From positions 16,929 to 80,928 of the forward strand of contig SHWZ01000002.1 in assembly GCA_009693575.1 (NCBI GenBank): a DNA stretch of 64,000 nt, read 5' to 3'. Each line of letters opens with the position of its first letter. The first letter of the stretch is position 1. Shown one piece after another: positions 6,922-62,748 of this stretch. This stretch comes from Flavobacteriaceae bacterium. Its GTDB lineage: Bacteria; Bacteroidota; Bacteroidia; UKL13-3. A program made the translations under genes and the position numbers. The notes under the pieces are model-generated. The model worked only from the letters and a program-made list of their open reading frames with translations. It was not told the DNA's origin and made no database searches.

Positions 6922-7099
6922 CTAAGCCAGTGTGAATTTTGCAACATTTGTACAGAAAGCTGTAACAATTGAGAAGCCAAGAAATACGAAAATTGTGCTT
7001 GCATATATGCAATACTATAAGACACTCTATTTAAGATAGACCAACGTAGTTTTAATACCATTTCCTGCATTTTGTTTGCCAATACTTTTGCGGCAAGCA

Positions 7100-8020
7100 A
7101 TGGATTCCTCCAAATACAAAAGCCTGATAAAAGCAGAAGCCACAAGGCTTGGTTTCATTGGTTGCGGTGTGGCCAAGGCTCAGTTTTTGGAAAGCGAAGC
7201 ACCCCGCCTGGAAAGCTGGCTGAGCAACGGGATGCAAGGGCAGATGGGCTACATGGACAACTACTTCGACTTGCGGCTCGACCCAAGTAAACTAGTGCCT
7301 GGGGCTAAATCAGTCGTATCGCTTTTGTATAATTATTATACCGAAGAAAAGCAGCTTGCCGATGCCCCCAAAATTTCAAAATATGCCCGTGGGAGGGATT
7401 ACCACAAAGTAGTAAAAGCCAAACTCAAAAAGCTGCTGCAATTTATTCATTCAACCATTGGCGACGTGCAAGGCCGTGCCTTTGTGGATTCGGCCCCTGT
7501 GTTGGAGCGGGCTTGGGCGGTGCGTAGCGGACTTGGATGGGTAGGGAAAAATGCCCAAGTGATTTCGCCCAAGCAAGGCTCGTTTTTCTTTTTGGCCGAA
7601 TTGATTATAGATTTGGAACTGCCGCCCGACCCGCCTTTTGCCACCGACCACTGCGGCACCTGCACCGCCTGCATGGATGCCTGCCCTACGCAAGCCATTG
7701 TAAAACCCAATGTGGTGGATGGTAGCCGTTGTATCTCATACCTCACCATTGAATTGAAAGAGGCCATACCCCGTGCCTTCAAAGGCAAGATGGACGGCTG
7801 GGCATTTGGCTGTGATGTTTGCCAAGATGTTTGCCCCTGGAACCGCTTCTCAAATCCACATACCGAACCAGATTTTACCCGCCCCGAACTGTTACAAATG
7901 ACCAAAGCCGATTGGAATGAACTCACCGAAGAAGTGTTCGACAAGGTATTTGATGGCTCACCGCTGAAGCGACCAGATTATGATAATATTTTGAGAAACT
8001 TGCGGTTTTTGGAGGAGTAG
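7100..8020 (+). CDS. queG: Epoxyqueuosine reductase
   Basis: [21 protein letters not shown], 4Fe-4S motif [21 protein letters not shown] and [12 protein letters not shown]. Start placed at ATG 7100, after the TACTTTTG box. Confidence 0.95.
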
Positions 8021-8100
8021 GTGCTTCTATCCTAAGTCGAATCCTGATAGCTATCAGAACTACTTTTCATTGGGAAGTATCAAGTCATACTTCGGAAGAC
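8021..8100. repeat. ~80 bp dispersed structured repeat (copy A), with GATAGCTATC palindrome core
   Basis: Colinear match to 61772-61851: GTGCTTCTA..GTCGAATCCyGATAGCTATCrGrACTAC..TTCAT..GG..AGT..CAAGTC......CGGAAGAC. Confidence 0.8.
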
Positions 8101-8108
8101 ATGTAACA

Positions 8109-8184
8109 GCATTGTTGGTCAGGAGACCAATAATGGCTTAGACATGCAGCGGCATTGTTGGTCAGGAGACCAACAATGGCTTAG
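8109..8184. repeat. Tandem duplication of a 33-bp hairpin unit
   Basis: GCATTGTTGGTCAGGAGACCAA(T/C)AATGGCTTAG occurs at 8109 and 8152 (43-bp period). Internal stem CATTGTTGGTC-AGGA-GACCAACAATG. Confidence 0.85.
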
Positions 8185-12267: not shown

Positions 12268-14123
12268 TTTTTCCTTCCCTTCAATTGCTGTTGTTTTTGC
12301 ACTTCCTCCAGCCTTGCCTGAAACTTCGATTTCTTCACAGGTTTCTTTTTGTTCTCCAATATCTGAAGGTGCAGTTTCTTTTCATCAACAAAACGACGAA
12401 TGAACCACTGCTGTACTATGGTGATGGTATTGCTTAGGAAATAGTACCAAGTTAGTCCAGCTGCATAATTGTTGAAGAATCCAAGGAACAACACTGGCAT
12501 CAGGTAACCAATGTATTTCATTTGCCCTGTCACGCCCGTCATGGTATTGTTCATCAGGGTGAAAAGCAGCGAACTCACGGTCATCATCAAAGTGAACAAA
12601 CTCACGTGGTCGCCATAAATTGAATTGATAATTGGCAGCACCCCAAAGTCCCACACACTATCGTAAGTGCTTAGGTCTTCAGCCCACAAGAAACTTTGCC
12701 CACGAAGCTCGAATGCGGAAGGAAAAAACTGAAACATGGCAAACAAAATTGGCATCTGCAACAGCAACGGGAAACAGCCACCCATCGGGTTCACACCTGC
12801 TTTTCGATAAAGCCCCATTGTTTCCTGTTGTTGTTTTTGGAAGTCGCTGCCATTCTTCTCCTTCAGGGCATCCACTTCCGGTTTCAGCAGCCGCATCTTG
12901 GCCGTGCTCAGGTAGCTTTTATACACCAGTGGGAAAAGCACAGTTTTGATAATCAGCGTAAGCAGCAAAATAATTATTCCATAACTTAGGATATAGTCGT
13001 CCAACAAGCCAAACACGGGAATTACCACAAATCGGTTTACCCAGCCGAATAGGCCCCAGCCTAGATAAACCAGCCTTTCAAGGTCGTGTCCGCTTGCTTT
13101 CAAGGTCGTGTAATGGTTCGGAGCAAACAGGAAAGTCATCCCAATGGTTTCATTTGCTGCGTGGGTGAATGGCAGATTCAAATTTGCCGAAAGGTTCTTT
13201 ACTTTGTTGCTGTCAGCGAGGGTACGGGTTTCCAAATGGGTTTTCGTGCCAAACTTCTTATCAGCCATCAGGGTCATGTTAAAATACTGCTGCTTGAACG
13301 ACACCCATTCAATTTCTGGGTCAACGGTCAAAACCTCATCAGCCCTTTCACTCATGTATTCCACACTCTCCTCTCCCGGATACTTATAGTAGATTGTTGT
13401 ACGTTCACGCTCAGGCTTGGCCAAGCGTTCCTGCTTTTCCAAGTCAATTCCCCAGTTCATTTCTATGTAGTCTTTGCCAGGATTAATGAGGTCTCTCATC
13501 CCTACAGTATTCAGATCAAATTTGAGTTTGAATCCCGCAGCTTCCAGCCCAAATCTGTGGTCAATGTATTGGCTGTCGTTCAGTTTTGACCGCATGGCCA
13601 CGGTCTGCCTGCCAGCAGAGTCCTTCTTGATTCCTCCAGGTACAAAGTAAAACTCCTTGCTAGTGGCTGTTCGGTTGTCAGCGGTGTTGAATGCATATTC
13701 CAATTTGGTGTCTGCATTCAGGAAACTTACCTTATCCTCCGTTCCACTTTTCTTAAAGTTTTTCAACTCAACTTTTAGCGGCATTCCACCCTGTGGATTC
13801 AGCCACACTTTCATGTCATCGTTTTCGATGATAGGAGGCTCCACAAGTAGCATCATCCCTTTTTGAGCCATGCCTTGGGGTGTAAGCCCAGTAAAAATGC
13901 CAGTGTCGGCCACTGGGGCTATGCCGGGTATGGTAGGTGCTATCTCTGCAGGTTTGGTGGCCACCTCAGTCATTTTAAGGGCTTCGGTCGAATCGTTCTC
14001 CCGCTTGTATTTTGCCTGCTGCTCTGCAGTGGGCGTGCTCATATAGATGTAGCCCAGCACTATGCCAACTATCACTACCAATCCTATCACCGTCATGCGG
14101 TCCATTCCTTGCTTCTGTTCCAT
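12264..14123 (-). CDS. yidC: Membrane protein insertase YidC
   Basis: N-terminal transmembrane segment and large periplasmic domain; YGIIILLLTLIIK, AGVNPMGGCFPLLLQMPILFA, FLWAEDLS and AGLTWYY. Confidence 0.95.
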   Translation of the reverse strand: MEQKQGMDRMTVIGLVVIVGIVLGYIYMSTPTAEQQAKYKRENDSTEALKMTEVATKPAEIAPTIPGIAPVADTGIFTGLTPQGMAQKGMMLLVEPPIIENDDMKVWLNPQGGMPLKVELKNFKKSGTEDKVSFLNADTKLEYAFNTADNRTATSKEFYFVPGGIKKDSAGRQTVAMRSKLNDSQYIDHRFGLEAAGFKLKFDLNTVGMRDLINPGKDYIEMNWGIDLEKQERLAKPERERTTIYYKYPGEESVEYMSERADEVLTVDPEIEWVSFKQQYFNMTLMADKKFGTKTHLETRTLADSNKVKNLSANLNLPFTHAANETIGMTFLFAPNHYTTLKASGHDLERLVYLGWGLFGWVNRFVVIPVFGLLDDYILSYGIIILLLTLIIKTVLFPLVYKSYLSTAKMRLLKPEVDALKEKNGSDFQKQQQETMGLYRKAGVNPMGGCFPLLLQMPILFAMFQFFPSAFELRGQSFLWAEDLSTYDSVWDFGVLPIINSIYGDHVSLFTLMMTVSSLLFTLMNNTMTGVTGQMKYIGYLMPVLFLGFFNNYAAGLTWYYFLSNTITIVQQWFIRRFVDEKKLHLQILENKKKPVKKSKFQARLEEVQKQQQLKGRKK

Positions 14124-60883: not shown

Positions 60884-61157
60884 AATAGATTAATTTAAGA
60901 TTAGTTGCGGGCAAAAGTATGGGCAAGTTGCTTTTGTCCAAAATGTGAAGCTGGGAAGTTGAGAAAGGCTGATATGTAACGTGTATTGCTCTGGTAGATA
61001 ATTCTACCTTGCGGAAGCCTTAAACAGCGAGGCTATGGTTCGGGTTGCAAACCTTCTGCCTTGTGCGAGACAATTGCAATCCGATAGCTATCTGATCGTA
61101 TCAGGTGGAGGGTACTAATACAAATACCGTATCGGTATAGCCTAAGCCAAACGCATT

Positions 61158-61604
61158 TTAGGCGAATGATTTGGCGTGTTTTTTCCAATACTTTTTGCCG
61201 TAACTACAAAATATTTCTTCGCCCGCTATAATGTTTCGTGTTGCAATAATGCATACACTATTATCTTCATCTAAGCCAATTTTGGCATTGTTCTTAAATA
61301 TGGTTTTAGCAGAAAATCCTGTTGCATCGTTCGCATATTTTGCAAAGCAATGGGTGTGCACAGAGTCCATAATAGTGCCATCCAGCATATTAATAAAGTA
61401 TTTGTCTTCGTTTTTTTTGTCTCTACTATTTGCTTCTGAGGCAGATAATATTTCTCCTTTAAATACCGATATAACTTCGTCTTTGTAAATATTTATCACA
61501 GTTCGTAAACCATTTCCTGCATTGGGCAATTGTGAAGTATTTATATATAAATAATCTATTTCGTTGGCATCAATTGTATTTATATTATTAGTTGTTTTTT
61601 TCAT
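61158..61604 (-). CDS. SET domain protein (putative lysine methyltransferase)
   Basis: SQLPNAGNGL, FAKYANDA (NH(S)-equivalent box) and IATRNIIAGEEIFCSYG..YW. Confidence 0.88.
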   Translation of the reverse strand: MKKTTNNINTIDANEIDYLYINTSQLPNAGNGLRTVINIYKDEVISVFKGEILSASEANSRDKKNEDKYFINMLDGTIMDSVHTHCFAKYANDATGFSAKTIFKNNAKIGLDEDNSVCIIATRNIIAGEEIFCSYGKKYWKKHAKSFA

Positions 61605-61771
61605 CCGTAAATTTTTATTAGTGCAGTCAAATCAACGTTTGATGTGGTTGGTTTGTTTGGAAGCGACATGCAACAAGTGCAGATATGATTTAGCCCATAA
61701 CTGCCTTCATTCATTTGGAATGGATTCCAGCCGATAGCTATGGAAACGGCTTGGGTTGAGATAGTGGCTTT

Positions 61772-61851
61772 GTGCTTCTACCCGTGTCGAATCCCGATAG
61801 CTATCGGGACTACTGTTCATCGGGGAGTTCCAAGTCTCCTAGACGGAAGAC
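61772..61851. repeat. ~80 bp dispersed structured repeat (copy B)
   Basis: Matches 8021-8100; perfect TCCCGATAG|CTATCGGGA palindrome followed by a CAAGTCT...AGACTTG stem. Confidence 0.8.
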
Positions 61852-61870
61852 TTGATACAGCGGGGATAGG

Positions 61871-62748
61871 TTAATCGCAAGGAGTACCAAACGGATCAAG
61901 CCTCTCATGCCAAACGCTTTGAACTTTATTTTGATTAAACCTCACTACAGACCGATATGGATAAATGACCGAGCATGAATATCCTTGAACTTCTTTATCT
62001 CCCCAAATTTTTTCATTATCACGATATCCAAAGTAATATTGTTTATATCTGGCGAAAAAAGTAATATGCTCATTGTCTTGTTTGTAATATTTTTCTGACT
62101 TATTTGTAAATTGATTGAATATTTTTACCTGCTCATTAAATTTACCCCACTCTAAACCTAGCTTGTTATAGCTTGCGAAAAAGGGCAGACCTAGATTATC
62201 AACTATTTCAATCGTAAGAACAATATAGTTAGTTGCACAGATGGACCAATTAAATACAATATTCTGCACAGTTGCTTCAGCTACTCCTTTCTCATAATAT
62301 ATATAATATTTTTTCTTTAGATATGAGGACAAGTAGTTCTTAAGCTCAGAACTTTGATATAAATTGGCTATTGCACTAGAATCAACATGTGGAAATTTGT
62401 TGATGCTATAGATACCCTTATCATCAAGGATTGTGTTGGCAATAGTCCAATAAAAACTATCCAGCGGCGTTAAAACTGGGGAACCTTCTATACCATATCA
62501 TTCATAGCAATCACCAACCCCACAGTTCGAGGTGTCACTTTAAATACAGGAAACAAAGTATCCTTGAGGTCTAATTCATTTAATGGATGAAAATGATCAA
62601 GGTATTCTTTCAATTCCTTTGTCATCCCACTCGACAATGATGTAGAATCCTCCTTAAGCCTCTGGCTGATTACCCCACTTTCAATTTCTTCCAAAGAATC
62701 ATTGCAGGAGCATAGTATAAAAATGACAAATAAATATATAGGTCTCAT
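61871..62748 (-). pseudogene. Split AT-rich lipoprotein gene
   Basis: MRPIYLFVIFILCS-C lipobox ORF stops at 62488. The downstream ORF (61871-62332) is open without a start back to ~62496 in another frame (YGIEGSPVLTPL...), consistent with one interrupted gene. Confidence 0.55.

Follow-up and report, generated by a model that had tools for sequence, protein, structure and literature searches.

A segment of about 80 nt occurs twice in the window, the 64-kb stretch of DNA analysed here, which belongs to contig C61 of a Bacteroidota assembly of 2.44 Mb and 43.8% GC (this genome is labelled G000 below). The copies lie 54 kb apart, and a T-A pair in the central palindrome of one is exchanged for C-G in the other. 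The original prediction took this exchange as a sign of selection on structure and suggested a MITE, a REP doublet or a small structured RNA. The question is what kind of element this is, and whether the exchange says anything about selection.

Results

Location and parts of the two copies

Copy A (8022..8110, plus strand) and copy B (61772..61865, plus strand) were delimited from their sequence, their mutual alignment and the covariance model R2 described below. The end-to-end alignment claimed for 8021-8100 and 61772-61851 was borne out by MAFFT and by global alignment, in which 66/86 positions are identical between 8022-8105 and 61773-61856. When the 18-nt palindrome is left out, identity is 51/68 and the score of 31 lies about 10 sd above that of shuffled sequences (-9.3 +/- 4.1, maximum 8, n=1000). 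Since the similarity persists without the palindrome, homology reaches well past it, and A and B are true paralogues.

Both copies had also been placed just beyond a gene 3' end, and each indeed abuts a stop codon. A begins directly after the TAG (8018-8020) of queG, the epoxyqueuosine reductase gene (7076-8020, Pfam). B is flanked by a minus-strand ORF on either side and sits upstream of a SET-domain gene (61158-61604), at a distance of about 170 nt; its 3' end is 5-15 nt short of the stop codon (61871-61873) that ends minus-strand ORF 61871-62332. The copies are oppositely oriented relative to the gene that each abuts. Directly after A (window 8109-8180), a 36-nt hairpin unit (GCATTGTTGGTCAGGAGACCAAYAATGGCTTAG) stands twice in tandem; this unit recurs on contigs C55, C71, C24, C66 and C47 and makes up a further small repeat family. 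No tRNA or tmRNA was found in the 64-kb window.

All parts of the copies are given on the plus strand. In A, alignment with palindrome-free GTCGAA-AGAC homologues identifies a remnant of the 5' arm and loop of a first hairpin, H1 (GTC GAA, 8036..8041), directly before the palindrome. The palindrome itself is a degenerate iterated one (TCCTGATAGCTATCAGAA, 8042..8059), which departs from the consensus by a mirrored T-A pair and a C.A mismatch. It is followed by the linker CTACTTTTCATTGGGAAGTAT (8060..8080), whose CATTGGGAAG block is common to copies of the same lineage (those on contigs C78 and C2 of this genome), and by a second hairpin, H2 (C AAGTC ATAC TTC GGAAGAC ATG, 8081..8103), with 2/9 pairs broken. 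In B, the H1 5' arm GTGTC and the GAA of a former GAAA loop (61784..61791), where CCGTGTCGAA is identical to a palindrome-free copy of genome G005, precede a consensus iterated palindrome within the H1 loop (TCCCGATAGCTATCGGGA, 61792..61809). The linker CTACTGTTCATCGGGGAGTTC (61810..61830), H2 (C AAGTCTCC TAGAC GGAAGACTTG, 61831..61854) and the 3' tail ATACAGCGGGG (61855..61865), a G-run tail typical of the family, complete this copy. A solo degenerate palindrome core (CCGATAGCTATGGA, 61731..61744, C61 78659) is found 30 nt upstream of B and a near-consensus core (CCGATAGCTATCTG, 61081..61094, C61 78009) in the next intergenic region, both given without strand.

Judged by these sequence features, A looks decayed or still decaying and B closer to intact. 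A has the degenerate palindrome and the broken H2 pairs, on its own it folds best into another hairpin (GAAGUAU/AUACUUC), its folding on the plus strand is no better than that of shuffled sequences (z +0.22), and the segment corresponding to the TTTG box that precedes B is taken by the end of queG.

Distribution of the iterated palindrome

When B was searched by BLAST in the complete assembly, TCCCGATAGCTATCGGGA was matched perfectly, over 18-21 nt, dozens of times. The underlying sequence, RTCCCGATAGCTATCGGGAY, is a 20-bp iterated palindrome and the top 12-mer family of the genome. Its 14-mer core (CCGATAGCTATCGG) is present in 28 exact copies, and in 39 copies at one mismatch or fewer, in the 2.44 Mb; symmetric flanks, RTC-core-GAY, extend it to the 20-mer. 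According to a crude gene call covering 88% of the genome, 32/39 sites are intergenic. In coding regions the palindrome reads PIAIG or PDSYR. In the cysteinyl-tRNA synthetase CysRS (G000:C46:1866-3350) it stands within a 9-aa (27-nt) in-frame insertion, GGLVGGPDSYR, that is absent from 23 orthologues; other in-frame palindromes were seen in IspG, in an M16-type peptidase and in a lipoprotein signal peptide.

The core was also found in 20/40 relatives, with 1-39 copies each and including four other families of the class, and congeneric genomes differ in their counts (10 versus 1; 0 versus 6). A reversed-sequence control gave 0 in all 41 genomes. Being genome-wide and shared with relatives, the central palindrome is not specific to the A/B element. 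The exact pattern of the palindrome with the A/B flanks had no match in metagenomes.

The palindrome forms, in addition, the terminal hairpin of four copies of the Flavo-1 RNA (RF01705) in this genome. Flavo-1 is multi-copy here, other copies being tipped by CGCCAACTTCCCCTTTGGCG; loci are G000:C9:23420-23500, C34:1680-1760, C50:45680-45760 and C78:6570-6650, together with L121 and L125. The idea that the palindrome always tips a longer stem did not prove general, as its flanks pair no better than controls.

Insertion of the palindrome into the H1 loop

Palindrome-free homologues (two in G005, two in G014 and one on contig C78 of G000) read GTCGAA-AGAC. Exactly at this break, A, B and a copy in G022, which belongs to another genus, carry 14-16 extra palindromic bases: the homologues run CCGTGTCGAA-AGACAC, B runs CCGTGTCGAA-TCCCGATAGCTATCGG-GAC, and the layout is the same in A and G022. 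From this alignment we conclude that the palindrome was inserted into the GAAA loop of H1. In terms of sequence, then, the central palindrome is a nested insertion of a separate and far more abundant element. The copies on C81 and C86 hold other inserts, of 28 nt and 31 nt, in the same H1 loop.

The exchange in the central palindrome

The central palindromes read as originally described, CCTGATAG-CTATCAG in A (8044-8057) and CCCGATAG-CTATCGG in B (61794-61807), so the T-A/C-G exchange is real; as evidence for compensation, however, it is weak. B has the palindrome consensus. A departs from it by three C:G>T:A transitions, two of which are mirrored and yield the T-A pair, while the third leaves an uncompensated C.A mismatch one pair further out. 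We calculate that, with five mirrored G/C pairs (ten positions), three random transitions produce a mirrored pair in 40/120 cases, about one third. Moreover, templated correction within quasi-palindromes could give symmetric changes without selection. The presumed compensatory change therefore carries little weight and, set against the consensus, the T-A/C-G difference is drift of A. The second stem, CAAGTC...GAC, was said to be kept in both copies. It is kept as sequence only, given the two broken pairs of A, and the five-copy alignment contains no compensatory change there.

These observations bear directly on the reading of the locus as an 80-nt element specific to two sites, with RNA-structure selection shown by a compensatory exchange. 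B does fold better than shuffled sequences on the minus strand (z -3.05), whereas A on the plus strand does not. The stem concerned is a genome-wide, fixed-sequence palindrome inserted into H1, A carries a second and uncompensated change, a mirrored pair is expected by chance about once in three, and H2 does not covary between the copies. Moreover, the non-palindrome part has no BLAST match in 118 other genomes of the family. We regard this reading as very improbable, already largely refuted by the palindrome distribution. What stands of the inferred selection on structure is a structured, repeated and unannotated element; the exchange that suggested it is uninformative, as it lies in a nested palindrome insertion. 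For annotation in general, a symmetric change in a palindrome should not, by itself, be taken as evidence of selection on RNA structure.

A family of two-hairpin repeats

BLAST of the non-palindrome half against 118 genomes of the family gave no match outside G000, and sequence search alone thus misses the family to which the element belongs. The two copies do have further relatives in their own genome, on C78, C2, C81 and C86. An nhmmer profile of A and B recovered a third, partial copy without palindrome (C2:48991-49041) and lone 3' hairpins on C81 and C86; relatives that are better preserved stand at G000:C78:82668-82744 and C2:48976-49051, those of C81 and C86 being partial.

Public metagenome contigs were scanned with an exact H2 pattern, AAGTC N0-1 TCC N3-5 GGAAGACTTGA, which hit 69 loci comprising about 26 distinct instances of one architecture. 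The unit, of about 76 nt, consists of H1, a linker, H2 (AAGUC..GGAAGACUU) and a G-rich tail. H1 has a 6-8 bp stem of free sequence, usually capped by GUC-GAAA-GAC, and the linker after it is short, often CTATCC. The lower 4-5 pairs of H2 vary yet stay complementary (GTG/CAC, GTT/AAC, CTT/AAG, CTC/GAG, GGC/GCC, CCA/TGG), while its upper stem, together with the flanks, keeps one fixed sequence, C-AAGUC(A)UCC-loop-GGAAGACUUG-A. Different genera also have in common a further small hairpin module, CCTGTCCTGCTARAGYGGGAA (L019:1590-1620, G000:C2:48968-48990), which in C2 occupies the position of H1.

Of the two covariance models built, R1 is based on 8 seeds and R2 on 41 matches. Covariation in this wider alignment is strong, as the original prediction would have it, for the two-hairpin family. 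In the 41-sequence alignment, which is fitted to the model and takes many of its sequences from a pattern that fixes the upper H2, 85.3% of cells are paired versus 68.4% when shuffled (0/500 shuffles reach this value). Double-sided changes occur in 17/23 pairs (reached by 2/500 shuffles), including compensatory changes at all 8 H1 pairs and all 5 lower-H2 pairs, and the covariation score is 0.405 versus 0.12 for shuffled alignments and 0.03-0.10 with pairing partners slid by 1-3 columns. Run on an alignment made with MAFFT, RNAalifold recovered the invariant H2 core alone, as H1 is out of register between subfamilies, a difficulty that the covariance models solved.

Scored with R2 and filters off, the copies of G000 rank from C78:82668-82744 (59.9 bits) and C2:48976-49051 (55.8 bits) through C81 (36.0 bits, with the 28-nt H1-loop insert), copy B (27.9 bits, E 5e-5) and C86 (23.6 bits, with the 31-nt insert) down to copy A (14.5 bits, E 0.24, match spanning 8013-8120). 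B is matched over the full length of the model (positions 1-76; 61796-61871) and has the complete family architecture of H1, linker, H2 and G-rich tail. The membership of A, supported marginally by its model score, rests on its 77% identity to B.

Among relatives, R2 was positive in 10/40 genomes with 1-28 copies, so that numbers range from 0 to 28 per genome. In an even sample of the phylum searched under strict filters, 28/301 genomes were positive (12/144 genera, two classes). A head-to-tail array of at least five units of 81 nt was seen at G019:C456:9762-10242, and another, of four units of about 148 nt, on a metagenome contig (L211:6453-6978).

Genomic context

The neighbours of the motif are a mix of housekeeping and accessory genes. 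By crude ORF calls, and at loci that are not all independent, the gene 3' of the motif lies on the opposite strand in 24/30 cases, often ending a few to 100 nt away; B fits this orientation bias and A does not. In 9/29 instances, including the C78 copy of G000 (TACTTTTG) and G014 (TATTTTTG), the motif is preceded by a TTTG box whose end is 5-7 nt away. Bacteroidota promoters have a -7 element, TAnnTTTG, in which TTTG is invariant. In A, in B and in the canonical copies, both strands are free of any T-run after H1 or H2 that would make an intrinsic terminator; at L163, a separate true terminator stands between two motifs.

Non-random orientation and the TTTG box would also fit a transcribed small RNA. 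The family, B included, would then consist of sRNA genes with their own promoters, with a GNRA-capped H1 and a UNCG-like H2 whose invariant upper part is a putative protein- or target-binding site. The strong covariation agrees with this, and so do the H1 GAAA tetraloop and the UUCG/UGCG/UACG-type loops of H2 on the plus strand. The opposite-strand H2 loops, however, are of GNA/GNRA type, so that loop chemistry does not settle the strand. Besides, two thirds of the instances are without a TTTG box (A among them, with the queG stop codon in its place), head-to-tail 81-nt arrays are too tight to accommodate promoters, a U-tract terminator is missing after the motif, and copy number varies between 0 and 28 among related genera. 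We consider small RNA genes rather unlikely for these reasons.

The close packing of some motifs with small genes raises a further alternative, in which the motif would be an attC-like recombination site of gene cassettes, with one opposite-strand motif per small accessory gene. At L163 and L179, motifs are 280-940 nt apart with small accessory genes between them (BrnT-like toxin, SUMF1-like protein), HNH and restriction-like genes neighbour the motif elsewhere, and the motif 3' end abuts the stop codon of an opposite-strand gene at many loci. On inspection, however, the R''/R' boxes (RYYYAAC ... GTTRRRY) are not in the required order in any subfamily, and the lower stem on the gene strand reads 5'-GTT..AAC-3', not 5'-AAC..GTT-3'. 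Many neighbours are housekeeping genes and the tandem arrays have no genes between units. Recombination sites are barely conceivable here, and the box order led us to reject them.

Comparison with catalogued families

No family of Rfam 15 matches the element. The whole window was searched at gathering scores and the A and B loci at E<=10, and nine metagenome loci were searched as well, together with a 941-nt stretch with three copies at E<=10; none gave a match to the motif. An Mn-riboswitch-like alignment was weak (10.6 bits) and was dismissed. The Flavo-1 model (gathering threshold 42 bits) had no match at E<=10 around A or B, nor in the metagenome instances; the same search finds true Flavo-1 copies elsewhere in G000, at 48 and 44 bits for two loci tested. 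When the literature was searched for CGATAGCTATCG, GGAAGACTTGA and GTCGAAAGAC, nothing but primers, terminators and unrelated text came up, and a search on COG2827/GIY-YIG with repeats found nothing specific. The two-hairpin family is uncatalogued, a second structured intergenic repeat of Bacteroidota beside Flavo-1.

The palindrome beside small GIY-YIG genes

COG2827 (GIY-YIG) genes are over-represented near GUCCY hairpins (Weinberg et al. 2010, PMC2864571, supplement). The palindrome shares this proximity in five genomes (G000, G027, G016, G011 and G023), where it lies 12-230 nt from small GIY-YIG genes of about 95 aa, themselves beside tRNA genes, and flanks them. In G023, the single palindrome of the genome adjoins the GIY-YIG gene; in G030 and G033 the palindrome is not beside a small GIY-YIG gene. 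On contig C20 of our genome (G000:C20:13100-13830), partial duplicates of tRNA-Leu(CAA) surround the gene (13441-13725), and three of the palindromes stand in them at the D-loop position. In G027, a member of another family, the orthologous gene (G027:C11:61600-62120) has one palindrome in the D-loop and one in the T-loop of tRNA-Leu fragments. An intact tRNA is kept alongside the partial duplicates, whose D-loop or T-loop the palindrome has replaced, at C20, at G027:C11:61600-62120 and at G016:C66:19300-19630. A partial tRNA-Asn(GTT) duplicate with a palindrome at the variable-loop position lies 100 nt from the intact tRNA-Asn at G000:C80:18050-18280.

By analogy with the REP-RAYT pair, the palindrome RTCCCGATAGCTATCGGGAY may be the repeat partner of a tRNA-adjacent GIY-YIG nuclease of COG2827 type, although we hold this to be clearly unlikely. 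Such a nuclease would have hairpin loops as its substrates (the D, T and variable loops of tRNA, the H1 GAAA loop, Flavo-1 tips), and the palindrome would be inserted there. The link may also be an indirect one, with the non-essential hairpins of tRNA fragments simply being good landing sites. If the partnership were true, it would explain the palindrome-bearing partial tRNA duplicates that flank GIY-YIG genes in at least two Bacteroidia families. The small nuclease offers a testable candidate enzyme for palindromic repeats reported without a transposase.

Discussion

Our results indicate that A and B are very probably diverged copies of a two-hairpin repeat of Bacteroidota whose H1 loop was invaded by the palindrome, and that the family probably behaves in a REP/BIME-like manner. 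The family would be a structured DNA repeat amplified in some lineages, forming tandem arrays and settling just beyond stop codons. Either single-stranded DNA or read-through RNA could fold into its hairpins, and transcript 3' ends are where an effect on the host, if any, would be exerted. The arrays, the patchy amplification and the nesting place this explanation first and a small RNA family second. We infer spread at the DNA level from the distribution only, since no mobilising enzyme, terminal inverted repeat (TIR) or target duplication was found.

Bacteroidota genomes carry several unexplained structured intergenic repeats, and the new models allow annotation of the two-hairpin family. The nesting provides filled and empty sites for studying how the palindrome spreads, one and the same palindrome being found in the H1 loop, at Flavo-1 tips, in tRNA-fragment loops and in-frame in proteins.

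Comparison with known systems

Flavo-1 (RF01705) is likewise a structured intergenic repeat of Bacteroidota, multi-copy here and with a variable terminal hairpin; to our knowledge no function has been assigned to it since 2010. B shares GATACAGCGG with its 3' half. Flavo-1, however, is one long stem with two AGCGG internal loops, whereas the repeat described here has two separate hairpins.

The REP/BIME of Proteobacteria are also short hairpin repeats, intergenic, located just past stop codons, patchy and arranged in clustered mosaics, with other repeats nested inside and occasional in-frame copies within genes. The two-hairpin unit differs in being longer (about 76 nt), oriented and invariant in its upper stem, and its arrays are head-to-tail instead of inverted. 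The suggestion of a REP doublet fails in its classical form, as there is no RAYT: the Y1 transposase (PF01797) had 0 matches in G000, G016 and G021, which hold 13-29 palindromes each. RAYT matches occur in genomes with 0 palindromes, so that RAYT presence does not track the palindrome, and we rejected RAYT as its partner. In one locus, L126 (G030:C45:35300-37300, 706-1104), the palindrome breaks up a RAYT-like Y1 transposase ORF where the catalytic WQxxY motif would be. There is no conserved GTAG (CTAC) tag at the palindrome end; a CTAC after the palindrome is confined to A, B and G022, where it stems from the host linker sequence. Neither is the element a classical MITE, as had been suggested, for no TIRs or target duplications were seen: on inspection, neither A nor B ends in inverted repeats (GTGCTTCT ... 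ACAGC), and their flanks contain no duplication.

The CGTC-tagged REPs are orphan repeats, reported also from Bacteroidetes, that were found to have no dedicated transposase (Di Nocera et al. 2013, PMC3733652). Compared by sequence, they and the GUCCY-hairpin motif, which is not in Rfam, appear to be the same thing, and a GIY-YIG nuclease, if partnered with our palindrome, would be the missing enzyme of this orphan class. As here, these are orphan palindromic repeats of Bacteroidetes with GIY-YIG genes nearby, and GUCCY hairpins are followed by a CUAUCC tail similar to the CUAUCC linker that comes behind H1. The CGTC/TGTC/CCTC tag, however, is present in 17/56 palindrome half-sites and in 4/30 H1 instances, a frequency at which we rejected a CGTC tag before H1. 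The palindrome stem starts with CC/GG, unlike the A-T pairs of the CGTC-REP/GUCCY class (8-9 bp stem, 4-5 nt loop), and its flanks are symmetric, RTC..GAY without a CCA tail, in contrast to a tag at one end and a CCA-like tail. The palindrome therefore fails the formal definition of both classes, although the GIY-YIG neighbourhood that it shares with them is still a lead.

Finally, RPE of Rickettsia and HIP1 of cyanobacteria are, like our palindrome, fixed-sequence iterated palindromes found both between genes and in-frame within them. They differ in sequence, in phylum and in size: at 20 bp, the palindrome is longer than HIP1 (8 bp) and shorter than RPE (about 100-150 bp). In contrast to both, it prefers in several cases the loops of pre-existing hairpins: H1, the Flavo-1 tip and the D, T and variable loops of tRNA.
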